A DNA stretch of 24,377 nucleotides from a virus (lineage: Duplodnaviria; Caudoviricetes): positions 1 to 24,377 of the IMG/VR virus record IMGVR_UViG_3300025016_000030. One strand, given 5' to 3'. The notes beneath the pieces were generated by a model that searched no databases, was not told where the DNA came from, and saw only the letters and a program-made list of their open reading frames with translations. The position numbers and the translations under genes were made by a program. This document shows positions 6,100 through 21,731 of this stretch, one piece after another; position 1 is the stretch's first letter; each line of letters opens with the position of its first letter.

Positions 6100-6255
6100 A
6101 TTTTAGAATCAATAATCCTACCGATGTGAAGCAACGGCTACTTAGATTAACACAATTAGATTTAAATCTCGGCTAAACTCAAAAACTGAATTGTAACAGA
6201 ATATAACAATTCTAAAACCCTTTATAGATCAACAACGTAGTAGATCAAAAAAGAT

Positions 6256-6284
6256 TTTACAAGATAAGAAACCGATGGTATAAT
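6256..6284 (+). promoter_or_regulatory. Strong sigma70/early-type promoter firing into an ORF-free region
   Basis: TTTACA-N17-TATAAT with extended -10 TG. Confidence 0.7.
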
Positions 6285-6289
6285 TACCA

Positions 6290-6672
6290 TAGAAACGCCT
6301 TAGAGTGTTCACGGCTCTCCCCTCTGTACGCCTACAGGCATGCGGAAGAAGATCTTTAAAGGTTTCCGAAAGGTCTTTAAACTAAACTACAAAGTTAATA
6401 GAGAATTAAAGCTATGGAGCTAGCTTTAGCTAGTGTAATAGCTTACCCTGAATGTAATGAAGGGTTACTACTAAGTGGACTAACTTTAAAGCTTATTAAT
6501 ACTTATTGCTAAGTTATCTAGAAGCTGTAGCAACGGCAGTAACCAGGGCATTCGGTTCCACCTCAGCACCTATAGCCTCACGGCTATAACTTCAAGGTTG
6601 GCTCTATACGGTAATACATATAGCCCTGCTTAGATCGTCGTAGAATGAATCTAATATACACCAAGGTATGGT
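6290..6672 (+). other. ORF-free, hairpin-rich region (candidate ncRNA or replication origin)
   Basis: No ORF of 60 aa or more; several stems (tttaaag/ctttaaa, ctagct/agctag, accct/agggt, tatagcc/ggctata, cagggc/gccctg, ttagat/atctaa). Confidence 0.4.
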
Positions 6673-6721
6673 AAAATAAACAATTGACTACAAATGTACT
6701 ATAGACGATACTAAAAATAAT

Positions 6722-6749
6722 TTTACTTCGGTTCTATTTTTATTAAAAT
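6722..6749 (+). promoter_or_regulatory. T4 early-type promoter
   Basis: TTTACT-N16-TAAAAT. A second candidate, TTGACT-N17-GATACT, lies at 6684-6712. Confidence 0.6.
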
Positions 6750-6775
6750 AAAGAATAAACTTTTAAGGAATTTAT

Positions 6776-7285
6776 ATGGCTAAATATGATCTAATGTTGG
6801 ATCTTGAAACATTTTCCACCAACAAAAATGCTGCAATAGCATCTATTGGTGCTGTAAAGTTTAACGATAAAGAAATTATAGATAAATTCTACATTAACAT
6901 AGATCCTCTTTCTTCTAAAGAAGCTGGTCTGCACTTTAGTCAGTCGACAATCACTTGGTGGAAAACCAATAAACCCGAAGCATTTGCAGCTTTAAAAACA
7001 AATAGAGTTCCCCTAAATACTGGGTTAGAAATGTTCTCTGAGTGGTATGGACCAAAATCTGTTCCTACTTGGGCTTGTTCTCCAAGTTTTGATTGTCTGA
7101 TTATGAATTCTAGTTATGAAGCACTAGGTAAAATTCTACCCTGGAAATATTTCGATGAGAGATGCTTTAGAACATTCAAGGCACTTTTTAAAGCGGACAC
7201 GGTACGTGAAGGTGTCTATCATAACTCACTCGACGACGCAATTTATCAGGCACAGTATATTATAGATGTAATGAAAAGGAAATAA
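6776..7285 (+). CDS. DEDDh 3'-5' exonuclease (DexA/Rv2179c-like)
   Basis: MLDLET, SIGAV, TITWW, SFD, PWKY..RCFRT, HNSLDDAIYQA. Confidence 0.9.
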   Translation: MAKYDLMLDLETFSTNKNAAIASIGAVKFNDKEIIDKFYINIDPLSSKEAGLHFSQSTITWWKTNKPEAFAALKTNRVPLNTGLEMFSEWYGPKSVPTWACSPSFDCLIMNSSYEALGKILPWKYFDERCFRTFKALFKADTVREGVYHNSLDDAIYQAQYIIDVMKRK

Positions 7286-7286
7286 A

Positions 7287-7730
7287 ATGAGAAATTTTGA
7301 CCGCGTTAGTAATTGGCTTAAGGTTGCAGGTAAAGTACCTTCAACCGAAACATTCTCGGTCCAATCTGGAGTTATGATTGAAGAAATGGCCGAATTTTTT
7401 GAATCGGTTTATTTTATCGATCGCCCAGACGGCAATGGTGCTTTTGCCACGATAACAGAGATGTTGCACAAGATCGGAAATGAACTCAAGAAAAATGGTA
7501 GACAACTTGGTATAATTGATCGTGTTGCTTGTCTAGACGCTCTATGTGATATTGACGTTACTTTGAACGGTGTAGCATTCCTTGCTGGCTTTGATAAGAA
7601 TAGTGCAGACGATGAAGTTCTAAATTCTAACGATTCTAAATTCGAAGATGGTAAGGCAGTTATTTTACCTGGGGGTAAAATATCTAAAGGAAAATATTAT
7701 GTTCCCCCGGATTTAACTAAATACATCTAA
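7287..7730 (+). CDS. MazG-like all-alpha NTP pyrophosphohydrolase
   Basis: EEMAEF, DALCD, EVLNSNDSK, DGK..KGKYY.PPDL. Confidence 0.85.
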   Translation: MRNFDRVSNWLKVAGKVPSTETFSVQSGVMIEEMAEFFESVYFIDRPDGNGAFATITEMLHKIGNELKKNGRQLGIIDRVACLDALCDIDVTLNGVAFLAGFDKNSADDEVLNSNDSKFEDGKAVILPGGKISKGKYYVPPDLTKYI

Positions 7731-7732
7731 TC

Positions 7733-8029
7733 ATGAATTTTAAGAAATCAGATAAACAATACACTCATATCTTTTTTTCGGATAAAGGTTCCCGAGGTGT
7801 TTATAACCTAAGTACTGGCAAGATTAAAGAGTTTGAAATGTCAGATAAAAATTTTAAAAATCCGGCGAAACTACTTGGTATCACTGGAATGAATTGCCAA
7901 CTTTATGTGACTATTGATGGTTCTGATATGACTGTTAAAGACATGTACTATCTTGATGGTGATAGATTTTTTACAGAAGAAGAAATTACTAAATATTGTA
8001 CCGGTATGAAATGGAAGTACGAAGCATGA
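7733..8029 (+). CDS. Hypothetical protein
   Basis: 98-aa ORF; ATGA overlap with the glycosyltransferase gene. Confidence 0.65.
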   Translation: MNFKKSDKQYTHIFFSDKGSRGVYNLSTGKIKEFEMSDKNFKNPAKLLGITGMNCQLYVTIDGSDMTVKDMYYLDGDRFFTEEEITKYCTGMKWKYEA

Positions 8030-8967
8030 AACAAACCAGAGCAAAGATTTTTATCCTGTCTAAGGGTCGCTGGGAATCCCGGATGACTTCAAAGACTTTA
8101 GAAGAAATTGGTGCTGATTATCAAATTGTGATTGAAGAACAAGAATATGATCAGTATGCAGCAGTAATTGATCCTAAGAAAATTTTGGTGCTTCCATTCT
8201 CCAACATGGGTCTTGGTGGTATTCCTGCTCGTAATTGGATTTGGGAATATTCAACCGCCCGTGGTGATGATGCTCACTTTGTGCTAGATGACAATATTCG
8301 TTACTTCTACCGGAGTTTGCATAATACAAAACTCCGTGTAAATTCTACTGTACCATTACGTGCAGTAGAAGATCTGGCAGAACGATATACAAATGTAAAA
8401 ATGGCTGGCTTGAATTATCACTTCTTCCAACCAACATTTGTTAAGAAAGAACCTCTGTACATTAATACTCGAGTCTATTCTTGTATTTGGTTGACAAATA
8501 AAACTACCAAGCGCTGGCGTGTTCTTGAATGGGATGGCAATCCTGCGCCATACAATGAGGATACAGATTTAAGTCTGCAATTTTTAGAGGACGGTGATTG
8601 TACATTCCTTCTAAATCACTTCAGTTGTGGTAAAGCAGATTCTGGTGCCGTCAAGGGTGGCAATAATGATACGGTCTATAAGTATGCTTCGGCAGAATAT
8701 GATAACCGTTTTAAGTTTGCCGCATCACTCGCTAAAGCTCATCCAGAGTTTGTTGAGGTAACTCAGAAACATCGCAGATACCATCACCAAGTGAATTATT
8801 CTAAATTCCAAAATTTCAGTGTGCCGCGCCTTAAACCGGGTATTGTTATTCCAACGGAACCGAATAATTACGGTCTTAAATTGGTGAAACTAGATGACCC
8901 AAAAAATATTTGTGGAACACATACTGTACTAAATACAGACAATTACTTGGAGTTGGAAAATGAATAA
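8026..8967 (+). CDS. TAGT/GREB1-like GT-A glycosyltransferase
   Basis: IFILSKGR, IVIEEQEYDQY, ARNWIWE, VLDDNI, RVYSC, YNEDTDLSL, GGN, HHQVNY. Start ATG 8026 overlaps the upstream stop. Confidence 0.8.
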   Translation: MKQTRAKIFILSKGRWESRMTSKTLEEIGADYQIVIEEQEYDQYAAVIDPKKILVLPFSNMGLGGIPARNWIWEYSTARGDDAHFVLDDNIRYFYRSLHNTKLRVNSTVPLRAVEDLAERYTNVKMAGLNYHFFQPTFVKKEPLYINTRVYSCIWLTNKTTKRWRVLEWDGNPAPYNEDTDLSLQFLEDGDCTFLLNHFSCGKADSGAVKGGNNDTVYKYASAEYDNRFKFAASLAKAHPEFVEVTQKHRRYHHQVNYSKFQNFSVPRLKPGIVIPTEPNNYGLKLVKLDDPKNICGTHTVLNTDNYLELENE

Positions 8968-9238
8968 AAATCTATTTGAGATGCTCGGTGTTGATACAGA
9001 TGTTCCTATCTGGTCTGGAATGCCATTTCATAAACAAGATCAAGCAGAAGCAGAATACGTACTGATCATAAATGTAGATTCTAAAGAAAATTTAGATAAA
9101 CTTGCAGATCTTATTGACCAAAAACAAATCAAAGTAAAAGCCAAAACAAATGTAAAATCTATATGGTATCCGAAATTGGTCAGAGGAGAACGGGGCTCAA
9201 ATAGTTGGTATGTCTGGAAAGAAATTGACGAGGAATAA
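8960..9238 (+). CDS. Small glycosyltransferase-associated protein 1
   Basis: WSGMP..Q, LADLIDQ, KSIWYPK; overlaps the GT stop. Confidence 0.7.
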   Translation: MNKNLFEMLGVDTDVPIWSGMPFHKQDQAEAEYVLIINVDSKENLDKLADLIDQKQIKVKAKTNVKSIWYPKLVRGERGSNSWYVWKEIDEE

Positions 9239-9242
9239 GATA

Positions 9243-9482
9243 ATGACAGATGAAGAACTAGAAGAATTTTCTACACCAGATGTAGAATCTGATATTCAAA
9301 AATTTAAATTAGAAGATAGATATGGCACTGGATTTCAAGTAGTTGTTAGATTTAGAAATCAAAAAGATTATTTTGAGTTTGCAGATCTCATTAAGCAACC
9401 AAAGTTGAAAGTTTATTCAAAAGTCAAAATGCGAGAGACAGATTGGCCCCTTAAAGAACCAGAAAATTCTCTCTTTGATTAG
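9243..9482 (+). CDS. Small glycosyltransferase-associated protein 2 (apparent paralog of protein 1)
   Basis: VVVRF..QKDY.EFADLIKQ...DWP aligns by eye with the previous ORF; SD GAGGA before ATG 9243. Confidence 0.65.
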   Translation: MTDEELEEFSTPDVESDIQKFKLEDRYGTGFQVVVRFRNQKDYFEFADLIKQPKLKVYSKVKMRETDWPLKEPENSLFD

Positions 9483-9484
9483 AT

Positions 9485-9512
9485 TTTACTTTTCTTTCTA
9501 ATGATTTATAAT
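9485..9512 (+). promoter_or_regulatory. T4 early-type promoter
   Basis: TTTACT-N16-TATAAT. Confidence 0.65.
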
Positions 9513-9529
9513 TAATTTTTGGGGTAAAA

Positions 9530-10477
9530 ATGAATAAACGCACATTGATTACTGGTGCTGCAGGATTTCTTGGTTCACATTTGGTTGAATCATTATTAAA
9601 TGACGGTCATTCGGTTATTGCTATGGATGATTTATCTACCGGTAGATTATCTAATTTAGAAAAATTTAAATTTAATAAAAATTTTGAGTTTGTAAGACAT
9701 GATGTAATTCAGCCTTATCATTATGATGTAGATCAATTGTGGAATCTTGCATGTCCTGCTTCTCCCCCAGCATATCAAAAAAATAGATATAAAACATTAA
9801 TGACTTCTATCAAGGGTGTAGAAAATGCATTAAACTGTGCTCGGAAAAACGGAAAGACGTGTAAAGTTTTTCAGGCTTCAACGTCCGAAGTATATGGTGA
9901 TCCGATCGTACATCCCCAAGTAGAATCTTACTGGGGTAATGTTAATACTATCGGACCAAGATCGTGTTATGATGAAGGCAAACGTGTAGCAGAAACTATG
10001 CTTACAGACTTTTCTCACGAATTTAATATACCTGTTAAAATTGTTCGTATCTTTAATACGTACGGACCGAACATGGATCCAAATGATGGTAGAGTAGTTT
10101 CTAATTTTATTATGCAAGCTCTCCTACACGAACCATTTACTGTGTACGGTACTGGTAAACAAACAAGATCATTTTGTTATGTATCTGATCTTATTTCTGG
10201 TTTTAGAAAACTTATGGATGAAACACCAGATTCATTCATTGAACCTATCAACATTGGAAATCCTAATGAATTTACTCTGATGGAATTAATTGATAAGGTT
10301 AAAGAACAAACTGGTTCTAAATCCGCTCTGATGTTTAAAGATCTTCCGGGTGATGATCCAAAACAACGATGCCCAGATATTACCAAAGCAAAAGAAATTC
10401 TTGGGTGGGAACCAAAAATTATGTTGGATGAAGGACTGGAAAAGACGATTACATACTTTAAATCGTTAACTAAATAG
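9530..10477 (+). CDS. uxs: UDP-glucuronate decarboxylase (UDP-xylose synthase), extended SDR
   Basis: TGAAGFLG, LACPASP, ASTSEVYGDP, YWGNVNTIGPRSCYDEGKR, RIFNTYGP, DGRVVSNF, QTRSFCYVSD, DDPKQRCPDI. Confidence 0.92.
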   Translation: MNKRTLITGAAGFLGSHLVESLLNDGHSVIAMDDLSTGRLSNLEKFKFNKNFEFVRHDVIQPYHYDVDQLWNLACPASPPAYQKNRYKTLMTSIKGVENALNCARKNGKTCKVFQASTSEVYGDPIVHPQVESYWGNVNTIGPRSCYDEGKRVAETMLTDFSHEFNIPVKIVRIFNTYGPNMDPNDGRVVSNFIMQALLHEPFTVYGTGKQTRSFCYVSDLISGFRKLMDETPDSFIEPINIGNPNEFTLMELIDKVKEQTGSKSALMFKDLPGDDPKQRCPDITKAKEILGWEPKIMLDEGLEKTITYFKSLTK

Positions 10478-10513
10478 ATGTGTAACTAAACTTTAAAAGG
10501 AAAAAAAATAATT

Positions 10514-11344
10514 ATGGGTAAATTGAATATTGGTATTGTTGGTCTCGGTTTTGTAGGGTCTGCGGTTGCACATGGATTCCAGAATAATAATTTATTTCTC
10601 GTAGATCCAAATCTGGGTACTGATACTTCATTGTTAAAGAAACAGAAGATGGATGCCGTGTTTATTTGCGTGCCGACACCTATGGGTGAAAATGGTGCTG
10701 TTGATATTTCCATTGTTATTAAAGTTCTTTCTGAACTCAAAGATGTAGATACTTTGTTAGTTTTGAAATCTACGGTACCACCAAATCTTGTTGATGAATT
10801 TTCTAAATTTTATGACAAGTTTGTATACAATCCAGAATTTCTTACTGAACGTAATGCACTGTGGGATTTTGAAAATCCAATCTCTAATGTTTATGGTGGT
10901 CAAATTGAACACACTAAGCAGCTCGAACAGATTTATAAAAATCACTCCATCTGTAAAGAGGCAAATACTTTCCACATGACAGCTCAGGAAGCATCATTTG
11001 TCAAATATGGTATGAATTCTTTTCTATCTGCTAAGGTGTTATTCTGGAATCAATTCTATGATCTGACTCAAATCGCCGGTGCAGATTTTAATATAATTAA
11101 ACGAGCAATCGCGAATGATGTTAGAATTGGTCCAAGTCATATGAATGTACCTGGTGAAGATGGTCACAGAGGATTTAGTGGCTCGTGTTTTCCCAAAGAT
11201 GTCCCTGCGTTTGTGAATTACTCATTCCAAATGGGTGAACCATTTACAGTACTTAAAGAAGTTTGGAACAAGAATTGTGATTATCGCTCGGCAAATCTTC
11301 TACCACGTGAACTTCAACAACACATTAAGTTTAACAAAATATGA
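10514..11344 (+). CDS. ugd: UDP-glucose 6-dehydrogenase family (short form)
   Basis: GLGFVG, FICVPTP, KSTVPP, NPEFL, KY..N, DVRIG, GFSGSCFPKD. Confidence 0.88.
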   Translation: MGKLNIGIVGLGFVGSAVAHGFQNNNLFLVDPNLGTDTSLLKKQKMDAVFICVPTPMGENGAVDISIVIKVLSELKDVDTLLVLKSTVPPNLVDEFSKFYDKFVYNPEFLTERNALWDFENPISNVYGGQIEHTKQLEQIYKNHSICKEANTFHMTAQEASFVKYGMNSFLSAKVLFWNQFYDLTQIAGADFNIIKRAIANDVRIGPSHMNVPGEDGHRGFSGSCFPKDVPAFVNYSFQMGEPFTVLKEVWNKNCDYRSANLLPRELQQHIKFNKI

Positions 11345-12918: not shown

Positions 12919-13536
12919 ATGAGTTTTGAAGATCTAGTTTGGGAACAAAAATTCCGGCCGAAGACCATTGATGATACGGTACTTCCCAGTAATGTTAAAA
13001 AGATGTTGAAGGAACAATTAGAATCTGGTAAGCTTCCAAATTATTTGTTCTGTGGACCTCCAGGTACAGGTAAAACTACATGTGCCTATGCTATTTCAAG
13101 TTTTCTAGATGCAGATGTTCTTTTTATTAATGCTAGTTTAGAATCTGGAATCGATACACTGAGAACTAAAATTACTCAGTTCGTTTCTACGGTTTCTTTT
13201 ACAGATTCCAAGAAAATCGTTGTACTTGATGAGGCAGATTATTTAAATTGCTTTTCTGCTTTTCAAGAAATAATGTTAATTGATCAAACCGGAGAAACTA
13301 TTTCTAAACCGATTGGAGAGCTTTGCGGCAAAGAAATAGATTTACTTTCGGTTGAAAATGGAAAAAATACAATTGATTCTGGAATTGTATTTCAGTCAGG
13401 GGAAGCAGAAATTTTTAAAGTAGAATTTGAAGATGGAAGTTCTATGTATTGTACAAAAGATCATAAGTTTTTTGATGAAAAAATGAATGAAGTTTGTATT
13501 GACGAGGGTGTTTATTTAAAAGCCGTACATTTCTAA
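12919..13536 (+). CDS. 44: Clamp loader large subunit gp44, N-extein (110 aa) fused to split intein IntN (13249-13533)
   Basis: WEQKFRP, GPPGTGKTT, INAS, DEADYLN, then CFSAFQEI (intein block A) and CTKDHKF (block B). Confidence 0.93.
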   Translation: MSFEDLVWEQKFRPKTIDDTVLPSNVKKMLKEQLESGKLPNYLFCGPPGTGKTTCAYAISSFLDADVLFINASLESGIDTLRTKITQFVSTVSFTDSKKIVVLDEADYLNCFSAFQEIMLIDQTGETISKPIGELCGKEIDLLSVENGKNTIDSGIVFQSGEAEIFKVEFEDGSSMYCTKDHKFFDEKMNEVCIDEGVYLKAVHF

Positions 13537-13577
13537 TTTTATTAAATATATTTAGATAAACTCATTCATCTAAATAT

Positions 13578-14651
13578 ATGCAAAGTCAAACTATTCCGTT
13601 TACGTATTCAATAAAACAAAAATCTACAGGGAAATGGTATTATGGTGTAAAATATGCAGACAATCAGACGCCAGAATGTCTTGGTATCACATATTTTTCA
13701 TCATCCAAAACCGTCAAAGATTTGATAAAGATTTATGGCATAGATGATTTTGAATTTAAAGTAAGAAAAATTTTTTCCGATAAATTATTAGCCATTCAGC
13801 ATGAATCTAAGTTTCTAAAGAGAGTTTGTAGGTATAAGAAATTAAGATTAAAATTTTTGAATAAAACATATGGGGCTCCAGCTTTTTGGCCTATTATGTA
13901 TGGTGATCTAAATCCATCTAAAAGACCAGAGATCAAACATAGACTATCTATTGGTGCCAAAAATAGAACCAAAGAAACATTGTTCAAAATAGGAAAAAAT
14001 GGTTCTGCTACTAAATTAAAAAAAAATATTTTGTTTTTATTGAGTAAAATTAAACCTCATAGAAAATCTTTATCAATTCAAACAATAATAGATAATAAAA
14101 TAACAAATTTAGCTATGGTTTCGAGACACATAGATTTTCTTAAAAACCATAAAAAATGCTATAACAATATAATAAATTTATACAAAAAAATTTTTGAATT
14201 AATAATATCGATTCCAAACAAACCGTATCCAAAAAATAGAAAACCAAAAGTAATGTCTCCTGAAGCTTCCAAACTAAAAGGTGAAAAAATAAGAGAAACA
14301 AAGTTAGGAAAAGTCTATGCGAAAAATATTTTTACAAATGAAACTAAAATGGTTAAAATAGAAGAAATTGGGGATATTTGGAAAAAGGAAAAAATGCACA
14401 CAGAAGAAGCCTTAATTAAAATTTCAAATACAGCAAAAAATTGTTCGGATGAAACAAGAGAAAAAATATCAGAATCCGTTAAAAGATCTAGATCTAATTC
14501 AAAATATTATACCTCCCCTGACAAATCTTACTATAAATCGTTCAAAGATAATGAAATTGTTCCAGATGGGTGGTTACCGGGAATTAAAGTTGAATCTCGA
14601 AACAATAAAATAGGTGAGAATAATAGATGGTCAAAGAAAGACAAAAAATGA
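13578..14651 (+). mobile_element. Free-standing GIY-YIG (Seg-like) homing endonuclease with NUMOD3-like repeats, between the split-intein halves
   Basis: FTYSI..K.TGKWYYG...YFSSS...G...F...E catalytic domain; MYGDLNPSKRPE, HTEEALIKIS, SDETREKIS; very Lys- and AT-rich. Confidence 0.85.
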
Positions 14652-15364
14652 AAAAAATAGTTAAAATTACTAGTTGTGGTATACAACCTGTGTATGATGT
14701 TACCACTAACAGAACACAGAAATTTGTTCTTTCAAACGGAATTATTGCACATAATTGTAATTCTGTGCAACCCGCGCTTCGTGGATTTTTAGATGAATTT
14801 AGTTCAAATGCTATTTTTATTTTTACATGTAATTTCCCAGAACGTATTATTTCTCCGCTACAGTCACGTCTGACTCGGATTGACTTTAAATTCTCCAAGG
14901 AAGAAAAACAATCTGCTATGTCGCAGATGTTTAAATCTACATGCAAAATTCTTGACACCGAAACTGTTAAGTATGATAAAAAGACTGTGGCCGCGCTGGT
15001 ACAGAAAAACTTTCCAGACTTTCGTAAAACAATTGTAGAACTTCAACGATATTCTTCATCGGGTGAAATTGATTCTGGTATTTTAGCTACGATTGATGAT
15101 ACTGGTATTAATGATCTTGCAACTCATCTGAAGGAAAAATCCTTTACTAAGGTGCGTCAATGGATTGCAAATAACCAGATGGATGCATCTCAGTTCTATC
15201 GGTTATTTTATGATAAGATTTCAACAATGCTTATCCCACAATCTGTACCGCAGTTAATTCTTCTGATTGGTGAAGCACAATTCAAAGCTGCATTCTCAAT
15301 TGATCTTGAGATAAATGCCGCGGCATTTTGTGTGCAAGTGATGCGTGATTGTCAGTTTCAATGA
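14648..15364 (+). CDS. 44: Split intein IntC (36 aa) fused to gp44 C-extein
   Basis: MKKIVKITSCGIQPVYDVT...FVLSNGIIAHN|CNSVQPALRGF...FIFTCN...PLQSR...FPDFR; ATG 14648 overlaps the HEG stop. Confidence 0.93.
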   Translation: MKKIVKITSCGIQPVYDVTTNRTQKFVLSNGIIAHNCNSVQPALRGFLDEFSSNAIFIFTCNFPERIISPLQSRLTRIDFKFSKEEKQSAMSQMFKSTCKILDTETVKYDKKTVAALVQKNFPDFRKTIVELQRYSSSGEIDSGILATIDDTGINDLATHLKEKSFTKVRQWIANNQMDASQFYRLFYDKISTMLIPQSVPQLILLIGEAQFKAAFSIDLEINAAAFCVQVMRDCQFQ

Positions 15365-16146
15365 ATTATGAATTACACCAAGGTGATTGTCTTGAAGTAA
15401 TGAAGATGATTCCTGGTTCTTCTGTTGATATGATTCTGTGCGATCTTCCATATGGGACAACTGCATGTGCCTGGGATACAGTAATTCCGTTCGACCAATT
15501 ATGGGAACAATATTCCAGAATAGCAAAAGATACAGCACCAATAGTATTAATGGCGGCACAACCTTTTACTACAGCTTTAATTTCCTCTAATATGTCTCTG
15601 TATAGATATTGTTGGATTTGGTTAAAAGAAAGAGGCACTGGATTTCCTATTAGTAAATTACAACCTCTTCGAATGACGGAAGATGTAGTAGTTTTTTATA
15701 AAAAACAACCAAAGTATAAGTATCAAGGAGAAAAACTCAGCAAACCATATAGTCATGTTTTGCCGATAACAAAGAGCGATTCGTCAAGAGTATCTGGTAC
15801 TGGGTATGATGAAGACGGTAATAGGATTAGAGCATATTATACTCATAGTACAAAAAATAATCTAATTAGTATTCCAAGAGATAATAATAAAAATAACAAT
15901 CACCCTACACAAAAGCCAGTAAGATTGATGGAATTTTTAATAGAAACTTATACGGATGAATTAGATACAATTTTAGATAATTGTATGGGTTCTGGAACAA
16001 CTGGTGTGGCATGTGCAAATCTCAATAGAAATTTTATAGGTATTGAAATGAATCAAAAATACTTTGATATAGCGAAAACTCGGATTACAGACGCACGCGA
16101 AACTGTTGAAAACATTGCAGAATTTGAATCTAATCTTTTTGAATAA
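15361..16146 (+). CDS. N6-adenine/N4-cytosine DNA methyltransferase (beta class)
   Basis: GDCLE, DLPYG (motif IV), HPTQKP, LDNCMGSGTTG (motif I). Confidence 0.92.
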   Translation: MNYELHQGDCLEVMKMIPGSSVDMILCDLPYGTTACAWDTVIPFDQLWEQYSRIAKDTAPIVLMAAQPFTTALISSNMSLYRYCWIWLKERGTGFPISKLQPLRMTEDVVVFYKKQPKYKYQGEKLSKPYSHVLPITKSDSSRVSGTGYDEDGNRIRAYYTHSTKNNLISIPRDNNKNNNHPTQKPVRLMEFLIETYTDELDTILDNCMGSGTTGVACANLNRNFIGIEMNQKYFDIAKTRITDARETVENIAEFESNLFE

Positions 16147-18290: not shown

Positions 18291-19751
18291 ATGGCCTTAA
18301 TTTATACATCAGTCGAACAAAGATTTAATAAGATTTACTTCCGTGGATATAAAGACGGAAAACGTGTGCAAACTGCAGATGCGCAGCATAAACCAACTCT
18401 ATATGTTCCCGGTCAATCAACCGAATACAAATCTCTGTTTGGTGAAAGTTTAACCGAGATTCAATTTAGTGACATTCGAGAAGCCCGAGATTATGTAAAA
18501 TCTTATTCTGATGTTATGAAAATTCACGGCAATGACCGATATGAATATGACTTTATACATCGGAATTTCAGAGGTGAACTTAATGTAGAATTATCAGCTC
18601 TTTCACTTCTATATTTGGATATTGAAACGACTACGGGTCATGGGGCAATTGACACTAGAAACGCTCCAGAGACTGTTCTTCTTATCTCATGTTATTCCAA
18701 TAAGCAGGCAAAAATGGTGACGTTTGGCATCGAACCAAGCAATGCCAAGGGTACTGAGTACATTCAATGTACAGATGAAAAGGATTTACTGCTTAAATGG
18801 ATTAATTATTGCATTGAAGTTGATTTTGACATTATGTCTGGTTGGAATGTCGTTCAGTTTGATATGGCATATTTGGGTTCTCGAATCATCAAACTGCTTG
18901 GTCAACGAGCACTTGATCGTCTGAGTCCGTTTGGTCACGTAGATGCTAAATTGGAAACAATTATGGACCGTGAATATCTTAGATATGAAATTTCTGGTCG
19001 TACGGTACTTGACATGTTGGATCTTTACAAGAAGTTCAGATTCATTAATCGTCCAAGTTATAAACTTGGCTATATTGGCCAGGTTGAAATTGGTGAAAGT
19101 AAAACCGAGAACAAATACAAGTCGTTCAAAGAACATTATGAACTTGGTTGGAATGACACGGCCGAAGGCCCTGATGGTTTTGTTTCTTATAATATTCAGG
19201 ACGTAAATCTTCTTGTTAAACTTGAGGACAAACTTGGCCTAATTTATTTGGCTGTAACTCTGGCATATTTGACTAAAGTAAATTACTCGGATGTTTATTC
19301 ACCTGTGAAAACTTGGGAATCATATATTCTTTCTACTCTATATGAGGAAAATGTATTCTGTCCAATAAAAAAGCATCATTCGTCTGATCACCAAATTGTT
19401 GGAGGTTTTGTGAAAGATGTTGTTCCAGGCTTGTATAAGTGGACCGGTGTATTGGATGCTACATCACTATATCCAAGTTTTATTATGTCACTGAATATGT
19501 CGCCAGAAACTATTGTTGACATGGTGGATGGAATTTCTATTGATACACTTCTCAACACAGATATTAGTAATGAATCTGATTATGCTCTTGCTGCTAATGG
19601 TTCTCGTTATCGAAGAGATATTCGGGGTGTGATGCCACGGCTTACTGAATCTATGTTCGGTAAACGCAAGGCAGCAAAGGATGAAATGCTACGTTTGAAA
19701 CGTGAATATGAAAAAGTTCATACAGAAATGGTTAAAAGAGGTTTAGCGTAA
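18291..19751 (+). CDS. 43: DNA polymerase gp43, part A (N-terminal and exonuclease domains, motif A, first fingers helix)
   Basis: DIET (ExoI), GWNVVQFD (ExoII), YNIQDV (ExoIII), GGFV, DATSLYPS (motif A), KRKAAK; stops in the fingers domain. Confidence 0.95.
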   Translation: MALIYTSVEQRFNKIYFRGYKDGKRVQTADAQHKPTLYVPGQSTEYKSLFGESLTEIQFSDIREARDYVKSYSDVMKIHGNDRYEYDFIHRNFRGELNVELSALSLLYLDIETTTGHGAIDTRNAPETVLLISCYSNKQAKMVTFGIEPSNAKGTEYIQCTDEKDLLLKWINYCIEVDFDIMSGWNVVQFDMAYLGSRIIKLLGQRALDRLSPFGHVDAKLETIMDREYLRYEISGRTVLDMLDLYKKFRFINRPSYKLGYIGQVEIGESKTENKYKSFKEHYELGWNDTAEGPDGFVSYNIQDVNLLVKLEDKLGLIYLAVTLAYLTKVNYSDVYSPVKTWESYILSTLYEENVFCPIKKHHSSDHQIVGGFVKDVVPGLYKWTGVLDATSLYPSFIMSLNMSPETIVDMVDGISIDTLLNTDISNESDYALAANGSRYRRDIRGVMPRLTESMFGKRKAAKDEMLRLKREYEKVHTEMVKRGLA

Positions 19752-19763
19752 TAGTCATATTAT

Positions 19764-19792
19764 TTTACATTCAACATCTTTTGGTTTAAAAT
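19764..19792 (+). promoter_or_regulatory. T4 early-type promoter for the second gp43 ORF
   Basis: TTTACA-N17-TAAAAT, followed by SD GAGGT at ~19803. Confidence 0.65.
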
Positions 19793-19815
19793 AGTCCTAA
19801 TAGAGGTAATAAATT

Positions 19816-19933
19816 ATGAATAGTAATTCTAGCGAGTTTTCATCATTGACTGATGAGCAGTTAATGCAGTTAGCTCATAAACTAAAATCCGATTCAGCTA
19901 GATTCGGGGTTCTTCAGTTAGCAATTAAAGTGT
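19816..19933 (+). CDS. 43: gp43 part B, exon 1 (not in ORF track)
   Basis: MNSNSSEFSSLTDEQLMQLAHKLKSDSARFGVLQLAIKV: first half of motif B (Q.A.K); SD GAGGT. Confidence 0.88.
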
Positions 19934-20179
19934 AAACAACTGCACCTTTATGTGGCGACACATAAAGCAAACCATGTGAATTCGGTGAAACTCCAGAACG
20001 GACAATACCGAGCCAAGCCCAGCAATGGGAAGGTGTAACGACTATTCCGAAAGGAAGTACAGACAAGTGTCTGGAAGTGCATGGCATCTCTATGAGATGA
20101 TGAGATAGTCTGATCTATATGGGAACATATAGCTGGGTCTTCCCGGAGTTAGAATAACAAACTAATTCGAACACATATG
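19934..20179 (+). ncRNA. Group I self-splicing intron, 246 nt, ORF-less, IA2-like
   Basis: 5' exon ends in U pairing with G in P1 (GUGU|A...UGCAC); P2 ctttatgtg-GCGA-cacataaag; P aattcggtgaaa; Q aataccgagc; P7 GACTA(20040)/TAGTC(20106); P3 ccatg/catgg; P7.1, P7.2, P8 and P9 hairpins; terminal G. Removal restores KVSLNSLFG in frame. Confidence 0.93.
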
Positions 20180-20724
20180 CGTTAAACAGCCTCTTTGGTG
20201 CTATGGCCAATAAATATTTTCTATTCTTTGATAATCGAATTGCAGAAGGTATTACGACCACCGGCCAATATGCAATTCAAGCAGTATCACGAACAGCAAA
20301 TGCTTACATGTCTAAAATCTGTAAGAAGGAAATGGATTATGTTGTCTATAATGATACCGATAGTTGCGTCGGGTCTAGTCTTGTCTATGTAAACGACAAA
20401 CAGATCCCAATCGAAAAATTATATGATATGTTTTCAGATTATACTAAATATGATCCAGAAAATCAAAATTTTGTTAAACCTACTGTTGGCATTACTACGA
20501 AATCATTCAATACAGAAAAAGAACAAATAGAAACAAAACAAATAAAATATGTTATGAAACATAAGGTTAAAAAAGAAATGTTTCGTATTACTTCGGAAGA
20601 TGGAAATTCCGTTGTAGTTACAGGTGATCACTCAGTTATCGTTCGTAGAAATAATGCTTATACTTCTATTAAACCAAAATATATAGTTGAAGATGACATT
20701 ATAATTACGGCGCAATTAAAATAA
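20180..20724 (+). CDS. 43: gp43 part B, exon 2, ending in split intein IntN (20362-20721, 120 aa)
   Basis: LNSLFGAMANKYF...AEGITTTGQ...YNDTD|SCVGSSLV (block A)...VTGDHS (block B). Confidence 0.92.
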
Positions 20725-20728
20725 AAAC

Positions 20729-20758
20729 TTTACAAAATGGTGAGAATCTGATTATAAG
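20729..20758 (+). promoter_or_regulatory. Possible promoter between the split-intein halves
   Basis: TTTACA-N18-TATAAG; weaker match than the others. Confidence 0.4.
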
Positions 20759-20801
20759 AAAGATAAACTTTCTACAATTTTAAAATGTACGGACAAAATA
20801 A

Positions 20802-21731
20802 ATGAATTATATAACAGGAAAATGCAAAGTTGAATCTCTTGGTATTCAAGAATTAGATGTATATGATATTGAAGTAGAAGACAATCATAATTTCTTTGCA
20901 AATAATATTCTGATCCACAATTCTCTCTGTGTCTGTTTTGATAATCTAGTTAAACTTTCACCTAAGAAAATGGACGACAATGCCTCAGCCGATTATATTC
21001 TTAAATTTATTAAGGATTTCCTTGGTAAGGAATTAAACAAATCTACTGAGGCTATATCGGCTCGGCTAAATTTTTATGAAAACAAACTTTACTTCAAACC
21101 AGAAGCTATTTCTTCAACTACTGTGGTTCTCGCCAAAAAGAGAAACTGTCAGAAAGTCATTGATAATGAAGGTGTTAGATATGCAGAACCAGAATACAAA
21201 ATTACTGGTATTGAAACTAACAGATCATCAACACCAGACTTAGTTCGTGAATGGCTTACTAAGGCAATTCAGATTATTTTAGATACAACCGACCGAGATA
21301 CTCTGTTAGCATATGTAGATGAATGTCACAAAAACTTCCATTCATATTCTGTAGAGGAAATTTCATTCCCCCGTGGTGTGAATAATATGAAAGAATATTC
21401 CGATGTAAATGCAATTTATGCAAAGGGTTGTCCAATTGCAGTCCGAGCTGCTCTTTTATATAACAACCAGATCACAAAGTTGAATCTGACAAATAAGTAT
21501 GAATTAATTAAAGAGGGTGACAAAATCAAATATGTAGCACTCATCGAACCCAATACACTTCGGGAAAATATTATCGGATTCACGGACAAACTACCAGAAG
21601 AGTTTAATCTTCATCGGTACGTTGATTATGAGACTCAATTTTCCAAGGCTTTTTTAGATCCATTAGTAAAAATAATGGATGCTCTGAACTGGAAGTTAGA
21701 GGAAGAGAACAGCTTAGATTCATTCTTTTGA
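20802..21731 (+). CDS. 43: Split intein IntC (40 aa) fused to gp43 C-terminal palm/thumb
   Basis: VYDIEVEDNHNFFANNILIHN|SLCV, AKKR, GIETNRSSTP, GDKIK, C-terminal clamp-binding SLDSFF. Confidence 0.94.
   Translation: MNYITGKCKVESLGIQELDVYDIEVEDNHNFFANNILIHNSLCVCFDNLVKLSPKKMDDNASADYILKFIKDFLGKELNKSTEAISARLNFYENKLYFKPEAISSTTVVLAKKRNCQKVIDNEGVRYAEPEYKITGIETNRSSTPDLVREWLTKAIQIILDTTDRDTLLAYVDECHKNFHSYSVEEISFPRGVNNMKEYSDVNAIYAKGCPIAVRAALLYNNQITKLNLTNKYELIKEGDKIKYVALIEPNTLRENIIGFTDKLPEEFNLHRYVDYETQFSKAFLDPLVKIMDALNWKLEEENSLDSFF

Follow-up and report, generated by a model that had tools for sequence, protein, structure and literature searches.

The Pfam family PF20691 takes in the DNA enzyme of phages T2 and T6, a beta-glucosyl-HMC-alpha-glucosyltransferase, and solitary glycosyltransferases (GTs) of this TAGT type are carried by 288 of 753 GT-bearing phage genomes, where their function was stated to be open (PMC13216743). 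Other sugars are also used: phages RB69 and DLP3 form arabinosyl-5-hydroxycytosine with a pentose donor that they make themselves (PMC13326640, PMC6024577), and phage pathways expressed in E. coli gave hexuronic-acid cytosine (Pyle et al., bioRxiv 2023.12.21.572611). Moreover, ParB-type proteins serve phage T-dioxygenases as activators on DNA (PMC13229309). Here we analyse a stretch of 24,377 nucleotides from a T4-like phage (IMG/VR record IMGVR_UViG_3300025016_000030, in the following the window), in which a TAGT-family GT, two small partner proteins A and B, a predicted UDP-glucuronate decarboxylase (UDP-xylose synthase, UXS) and a short UDP-glucose dehydrogenase (Ugd) form one block of genes. 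We conclude that this module departs from the known forms of phage TAGT-type glycosylation in a firmly predicted sugar donor and a probable, so far unrecognised subunit.

Of the window phage only this genome fragment of 24 kb is available, and many searches were run on G001, a related phage with a 100%-complete genome of 192 kb, whose transferase and polymerase are 79% and 88% identical to those of the window. With the T2/T6 enzyme the module GT shares the Pfam family above the curated cut-off, the GT-A fold and the location in a T4-like replication region. It differs in belonging to a separate clade, with no T-even record among 27 tblastn matches (50,697 phage records), in needing no alpha-GT partner in G001, and in having a probable small subunit and a donor pathway of its own; its identity to the PKO111 enzyme is 13% (TM 0.58). 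RB69 and DLP3 also make a pentose donor for DNA glycosylation, but their donor is NDP-arabinofuranose, made from ribulose-5-phosphate, and a ThyA-family enzyme, of which we find none in the module or in G001, provides the acceptor; a UXS route appears in these papers only as a possibility, and UDP-xylose is not known in E. coli (PMC6024577). The 5mYOX/C5-MT-linked subclass II clusters of Pyle et al., which pair a GT with a sugar epimerase, likewise hold a GT-A enzyme with R...DD...ED motifs beside a donor-making short-chain dehydrogenase/reductase (SDR). Their product is a hexuronate, whereas the module SDR is a predicted decarboxylase and neither the module cluster nor G001 has a 5mYOX or C5-MT; the string 'xylos' is absent from the main text of that preprint. 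Finally, in the ParB-dependent T-dioxygenase systems the DNA-modifying enzyme is activated by a ParB-like protein that dimerises through its C-terminal domain (PMC13229309), and the small domain of our module elsewhere makes up the C-terminus of ParB_N proteins encoded next to the GT. Here the enzyme is a glycosyltransferase and the ParB N-terminal domain is gone in the window phage, and the likeness that we draw is one of architecture. A preliminary description of the window had put forward xylose or glucuronate as a DNA adduct. The glucuronate option has already been reported as hexuronic-acid cytosine. Neither xylose on phage DNA nor a pairing of TAGT with UXS nor the small subunit came up in the literature, in a search with Iyer et al. 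2013, the mycobacteriophage virion-glycosylation work and supplements (Pyle Table S4/Fig. S10) outside its scope. The literature drawn on also included PMC13390438 and PMC8056088.

The five-gene block is real, conserved and under purifying selection. The window covers the replication region of a T4-like phage, with the end of gp32, phoH, gp45, gp44, gp62, regA, gp43, uvsX and gp41, and between the exonuclease and gp45 a single strand encodes a MazG-like protein, an open reading frame (ORF) of 98 aa, the PF20691 GT, two small ORFs, the SDR and the nucleotide-sugar dehydrogenase (Table 1). All six genes of the same-strand cluster that the preliminary description had reported in the replication module are indeed present on the + strand; in three points it had to be refined: the MazG-like gene is not a fixed part, which leaves a five-gene core GT-A-B-UXS-Ugd, a 98-aa ORF lies between the MazG-like gene and the GT, and the Ugd is a short form. 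Three related phages, at 54-79% identity, have the core genes in this same order, as does the more distant locus L051, and between two relatives all five genes show dN values of 0.00-0.04 against dS values of 0.15-0.55, with dN/dS at most about 0.11. In L051 no MazG-like gene stands 5' of the GT, and in L008 and L009 other ORFs are inserted between the two; the 98-aa ORF gave no match in Pfam, PHROG or NCBIfam and no usable match in the ESM Atlas. PADLOC matched 0 of 7 proteins. DNA matching the window occurs mostly in aquifer metagenomes, and contigs from the RNA libraries of two aquifer studies, which are not proof of transcription, span parts of the genes for the GT, small A, UXS and Ugd.

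The donor pathway is the best defined part of the module. Against the PDB, the SDR finds human UXS1 at E 3.7e-106, with the next PDB family at only E 1.5e-37, and its motifs GAAGFLG, ASTSEVYG, YDEGK, DGRVVSNF and DDPKQRCPD are intact, so that UXS1 as closest relative and the STSE, YxxxK and DDPxxRxPD motifs, the features of UXS membership, are all present. The ArnA and AXS models of NCBIfam reach only E 1e-22 to 1e-25, and no NCBIfam model exceeded its cut-off. The gene is conserved (dN/dS 0.06, two relatives). The SDR is therefore clearly assigned as a UDP-xylose synthase, its activity being predicted from sequence, and the route from Ugd through UXS to UDP-xylose in the preliminary description holds at the level of predicted activities. 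Of 142 viral UXS loci, the best 80 served to count the pairing of UXS with this type of GT. The GT lies within 1.5 kb of UXS at 23 of these 80 loci, in 17 of the 65 clusters formed at 90% identity and in 8 of 37 at 70%; three of the 17 GT-linked clusters are the window's own lineage. In a quick tree of 80 transferases, those linked to UXS are spread over several branches. Because the adjacency recurs across clusters and tree branches, UDP-xylose is the likely donor; this repeated adjacency also bears out the functional tie between GT and UXS that had been suspected. Overall, we consider it probable that xylose is the sugar transferred.

The catalytic motifs of human UXS1 and of bacterial Ugd align with those of the module enzymes, and the Ugd keeps GLGFVG, KSTVP, PEFLTE, K164/N168 and C225-K228-D229. 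It differs from bacterial Ugd in missing the third, C-terminal Pfam domain: 47 aa follow CxPKD, compared to 132-175 in full-length enzymes. This C-terminal domain helps to bind UDP in full-length Ugd, and UDP-glucose as the substrate of the short enzyme is consequently only a prediction, which counts against a simple reading of the donor route. The short form is present in 10 of the 13 Ugd genes beside related GTs and is common in phages, and dN is 0.037 against a dS of 0.549; the short Ugd is a selected form and not a product of decay. The Ugd of phage SP-15, which carries phosphoglucuronate DNA, was considered as a precedent for the short form and rejected, since it is full length. In Microbacterium phage Smarties (L047:3611-5786) a ParB-like gene, a glycosyltransferase and a short Ugd are consecutive, showing the same logic with a different transferase.

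The assignment of the GT to the TAGT family, made earlier from the letters alone, was borne out by profile and structure searches. The protein scores 119.3 bits against PF20691 (curated cut-off 27.5), and its AlphaFold model (pLDDT 88) is a single soluble domain with a GT-A fold. Its matches among BFVD structures include TAGT proteins down to E 2.7e-20. PDB matches are GT-A proteins such as VIA (Z 13.9, root-mean-square deviation 3.8, 202 aligned residues), and as fold matches they are generic (Z 10-14 at about 10% identity), including protein GTs, TarP and polysaccharide synthases; phmmer found 0 matches among PDB sequences at E 1. In an alignment of 29 sequences, K13-G14-R15, D88-D89-N90, N177/D179, G211-G212, R251 and H254 are invariant. 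R15, D88-D89 and E178-D179 are kept, with the motifs reading DDN and EDT versus the DDD and EDY/F of the 5mYOX-linked GT-A/JGT type. The GT belongs to a clade of 21 members (SH-aLRT 99), mostly from T4-like phage loci, 15 of which come with Ugd and/or SDR; the clade in its wider sense is estimated at about 3,200 stored IMG/VR stretches. In the literature an Aeh1 transferase, which may be the gene matched here, is given an unknown base as its presumed target. At the T4-like loci L142, L162 and L165 two TAGTs stand in tandem, of which the second, more distant one bears a polymerase-like tail.

For the small partners, the neighbourhoods of the GT were compared in the best 80 of 570 confirmed loci, which form 62 clusters. 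In 59 of these 62, the small domain either forms part of the GT polypeptide or is encoded within 2.5 kb of it. Fusions are found in Aeh1, Kuja, GD1, L063, POP12 and phage 65, and in many small phages the domain is the C-terminal part of a ParB_N protein beside the GT, with terminase and portal genes following. Of 1075 relatives of small A, none of the 120 listed carries a Pfam domain, and the ESM Atlas gave matches to unnamed viral clusters only. Modelled alone with AlphaFold, small A reaches only a poor pLDDT of 62, but together with the GT the complex scores 0.88, compared to 0.00 for the best of three controls. The mark applied here is met by 116 of 157 solved pairs and by 2 of 215 mismatched pairs, rates that are only rough for a three-chain prediction. 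Across the runs the contact agreement was at least 71% and the partner pLDDT at least 83. In the predicted interface the WxxMP segment of A, with the conserved W18 and P22, and its C-terminal strand face the GT, and B barely contacts it. Small B is a paralogue of A (hhalign probability 97.1, E 5e-11) without the WxxMP contact segment. Thus the modelling supports binding, and small A is a probable, predicted subunit of the transferase.

Small B ends in ENSLFD, and the polymerase of the same phage ends in ENSLDSFF, which aligns with SLDFLF of T4. Such tails bind the sliding clamp gp45 (PMC2988020), and the alpha-GT of T4 binds gp45 as well (PMC13216743). The clamp clients gp43, gp55 and gp33 have C-terminal motifs of this hydrophobic-acidic type. 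With a tail matrix that includes the phage's own clients, small B ranks 3 of 239 and is the best untrained protein. Polymerase-like tails occur on a module protein at 4 of 20 T4-like loci versus 0 of 42 others (Fisher p 0.009), or at 2 of 20 versus 0 of 42 with a stricter pattern, and also on the partner in POP12 (GLDDFM), the Aeh1 partner and the GD1 GT. Several points speak against this reading. With a matrix built from 14 polymerase tails of other phages small B drops to rank 7 of 239 and gp55 is missed, and with only three distant tails it drops to rank 20 of 239. The threshold of the tail score sits just below the score of small B, and of the four tail-positive loci two are the window's own lineage and two have the tail on a second, more distant TAGT. 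Finally, L051, L064 and phage 65 show no such tail. The evidence for the tail is therefore moderate, and we see the chances that small B is a putative tether to gp45 as evenly balanced.

The timing of expression would fit replication. Sites of the type TTTAC(A/T)-16/17-TA(T/A)AAT precede the exonuclease run, UXS and gp45 in the window. The 8 matches in the window, versus 0.25 expected, are partly circular, as the pattern was picked after seeing the window, but the 41 copies in G001 provide independent support. In G001 this class of motif stands before gp45, gp55, uvsY, primase and gp43, with the TTTTACT form before gp55, uvsY, primase, dCMP deaminase, helicase and small B; the counterpart of the site ahead of UXS lies there between small A and small B. 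No TATAAATA late site was found within the window. By these consensus matches, the block is thus grouped with the replication genes and not with the virion genes.

Which molecule receives the sugar is the question on which the evidence divides. The preliminary description had proposed a hydroxymethyl-pyrimidine acceptor, made by an enzyme encoded elsewhere in the genome, and a DNA armour of the T4 kind. As the window genome is a fragment, the absence of such an enzyme from the window phage is inferred from G001, where the search for a hydroxymethylase, TET or JBP was negative: six-frame searches with PF00303, PF12851, PF00145 and phage TET returned 0 matches, be it to the ThyA family, Tet_JBP, a phage TET or a C5 methylase. 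Nor did Pfam (212 of the 238 ORFs with 80 aa or more, the remaining 26 left out as probable shadow ORFs) or PHROGs (103 ORFs) reveal a second glycosyltransferase in G001, many ORFs of which are without annotation, and in these scans no match turned up for dCTPase gp56, DenB or Alc. They do show ThyX and a dCMP deaminase, which points to thymidylate made by ordinary ThyX. This ThyX was considered as a hidden hydroxymethylase and rejected: it scores as an ordinary member (phrog_85 E 2e-90), although the RHRx7S motif was not matched, and Aeh1 and GD1 use ThyA. Moreover, Tet_JBP occurs in only one of the 62 GT neighbourhoods and the ThyA family in none, judged from 96 scanned neighbours out of 640 ORFs around 62 GTs (26 of 48 recurrent family representatives and 70 of 75 close singletons). 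Aeh1, GD1, Kuja, phage 65 and POP12 each have only one full ThyA-family gene and 1.076.O has none; PTm1 has a second, divergent thymidylate synthase match, the other cultured carriers having mostly one ordinary copy. G001 also contains 3 GTGCAC sites where 23 are expected (p about 1e-5, corrected), a depletion ill-suited to a genome-wide shield, and general avoidance of palindromes is not seen in this single genome (mean ratio 0.99-1.01). From the missing acceptor genes and the avoidance of GTGCAC we can conclude that base replacement in the style of T4 is unlikely, and neither the proposed acceptor nor the genome-wide armour finds support. T4 relatives without gene 42, Aeh1 and 65 among them, are described as probably unmodified, and some are cut by type II enzymes (PMC2993671). 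The net charge of the window GT is only +1.

For DNA as the target, the TAGT family with its T2/T6 enzyme, the ParB-type partners, the basic relatives (62 of 73 are net basic), the replication-class promoters and the clamp-like tail all point in the same direction. To these comes the locus L190:20-3982, in which a TET/JBP protein, an amino-acid:DNA transferase, a P-loop kinase and a small partner stand together with a GT of the same clade that is 50% identical to the window GT; because this relative lies in a TET cluster, the clade can serve DNA hypermodification. On balance, we slightly favour DNA as the acceptor molecule. The short Ugd and UXS would turn host UDP-glucose into UDP-xylose, and the GT, completed by small A, would transfer the xylose onto limited positions in newly made phage DNA, with small B possibly tying it to the sliding clamp. 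The acceptor would not be hydroxymethyl-cytosine or -uracil from any known route, and the purpose would be protection against host DNA-targeting defences. Such a partial, replication-coupled xylosylation at an acceptor not made by known routes is our tentative reading, falling a little short of an even chance. A bolder version, that the clade glycosylates ordinary DNA directly, be it at an exocyclic amine, on the backbone or at the end of a strand, without prior hydroxylation of a base and here with xylose while riding the clamp, is speculative and on present evidence unlikely.

The main rival is that the module xylosylates a protein of phage replication, packaging, the virion or the host, with the small domain and the ParB partner positioning the enzyme. 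Proteins already offer hydroxyl groups, so that the main gap, the missing enzyme for an acceptor, would not arise. GREB1, a relative in the same superfamily, glycosylates protein at Ser/Thr (PMC7968844). In small phages the module adjoins terminase and portal genes, the largest terminase family being present at 15 of the 62 loci, and protein GTs are among the best PDB fold matches, though identity is about 10% throughout. Glycosylation of mycobacteriophage capsids is known. On the other side, the replication-class promoters and the missing late motif argue against virion decoration in this phage, and the TET-linked relative in L190, the ParB partners, the mostly basic relatives and the confinement of the tails to T4-like loci fit DNA better; we rate a protein target as rather unlikely, but serious. 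A role in superinfection exclusion or counter-defence, through a change in the host surface (LPS, capsule) or in a small molecule used for signalling, would agree with a GT-A fold common to TarP and polysaccharide synthases and with the missing DNA acceptor. The single soluble domain, the generic nature of the fold matches and the neighbouring replication, ParB and packaging genes make it highly improbable.

Two further alternatives keep DNA glycosylation in principle and change the chemistry. Genome-wide xylosylation of hydroxymethyl-cytosine or -uracil, formed by a hydroxymethylase or TET elsewhere in the genome, would be in line with all characterised phage TAGTs, which act on a hydroxymethyl-pyrimidine or its glucoside (PMC13216743; bioRxiv 2023.12.21.572611), and a very divergent enzyme could hide in the rest of the fragmentary window genome or among the unannotated ORFs of G001. 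Against the empty six-frame searches, the ordinary ThyX, the lack of matches to gp56, DenB and Alc and the avoided GTGCAC, we consider it very unlikely. Alternatively, the sugar could be glucuronate or a 4-keto-pentose, or the short Ugd, missing its third domain, could use a different nucleotide sugar. Hexuronate adducts are known (bioRxiv 2023.12.21.572611), and in the nearest GT clade the SDR that accompanies Ugd is mostly not a UXS (for 11 of 15 SDR neighbours the identity to UXS is 22-25%), which suggests that the ancestral donor was probably a uronate. In the window, however, UXS is intact and conserved, and among the 65 viral UXS clusters Ugd accompanies GT and UXS in only 4, compared to the 17 with a GT. 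The decarboxylated product thus appears to travel with the GT, and a sugar other than xylose is improbable.

Table 1. Positions of the module genes, their neighbours and promoter-like sites in the window.
Feature	Position	Strand	Remark
Replication-class promoter-like site TTTACT-16-TAAAAT, before the exonuclease/MazG/GT run	6722..6749	+	Consensus match only
MazG-like nucleotide pyrophosphohydrolase	7287..7730	+	phrog_671 E 2.8e-23; neighbour rather than fixed module part
98-aa ORF, function not assigned; variable neighbour between MazG and GT	7733..8029	+	Present in L008/L009 (65-67%), not in L052
TAGT-family GT-A glycosyltransferase, 313 aa	8026..8967	+	PF20691 E 2.8e-34
Small partner A, 92 aa, WxxMP...KSIWYP	8960..9238	+	Predicted transferase subunit
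Small partner B, 79 aa, paralogue of A	9243..9482	+	C-terminus ENSLFD
Replication-class promoter-like site TTTACT-16-TATAAT, before UXS-Ugd	9485..9512	+	Consensus match only
Predicted UDP-glucuronate decarboxylase (UDP-xylose synthase, UXS)	9530..10477	+	Human UXS1 4gll E 3.7e-106
Short-form UDP-glucose dehydrogenase (Ugd), predicted, 276 aa	10514..11344	+	N-terminal and central Pfam domains

Around the module, the window has several further features. At 6112-6776 a stretch of 660 bases free of ORFs, flanked by divergent helicase and exonuclease genes, contains short inverted repeats and shows strain variation in reads; it is possibly an origin or a regulatory region. The DNA polymerase (18291-21731) is fragmented: gp43A ends at 19751, gp43B restarts near 19810 and is broken twice, first by a group I intron (RF00028, 19924-20132, E 1.7e-22), further on by an apparently naturally split intein, with the N part ending at 20724 and the C part starting at 20802. 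The polymerase of G001 is an unbroken gene of 828 aa. The clamp loader gp44 (12919-15364), also unbroken in G001, is fractured by a split intein, its halves separated by a free-standing GIY-YIG (SegE-like) ORF at 13578-14651, and an N6/N4 DNA methyltransferase is inserted between gp44 and gp62 (15361-16146), which is not at that position in L008/L009. In G001 a GH5 glycosyl hydrolase and two genes of no assigned function lie directly upstream of the helicase, near the sugar module (L046:1210-5677), and are absent from the window. G001 additionally encodes a block that resembles bacteriocin export, in a T4-like phage, in which a C39-peptidase ABC transporter and a CBM9-like protein come after a radical SAM gene (L043:9466-15201), and an NAD salvage set (NAMPT, NadM-Nudix, NADAR, PnuC, NadR-like) together with the CBASS inhibitor Acb3 (L039:2533-5511, L044:3059-3634, L044:8069-10936).

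In summary, a likely donor and a likely missing subunit can now be named for a TAGT, and through them the question of the orphan TAGTs becomes testable. The absence of either UDP-xylose or the small subunit could hide the activity of a lone GT in E. coli screens. Should the module act on protein, thousands of phages would carry a family wrongly annotated as DNA-modifying. Should it act on DNA, xylose would join the sugars found there as a new one, and its acceptor would mean new chemistry. Direct glycosylation of ordinary DNA, if true, would open a new way of making modified DNA and account for the hundreds of orphan TAGTs in phages.

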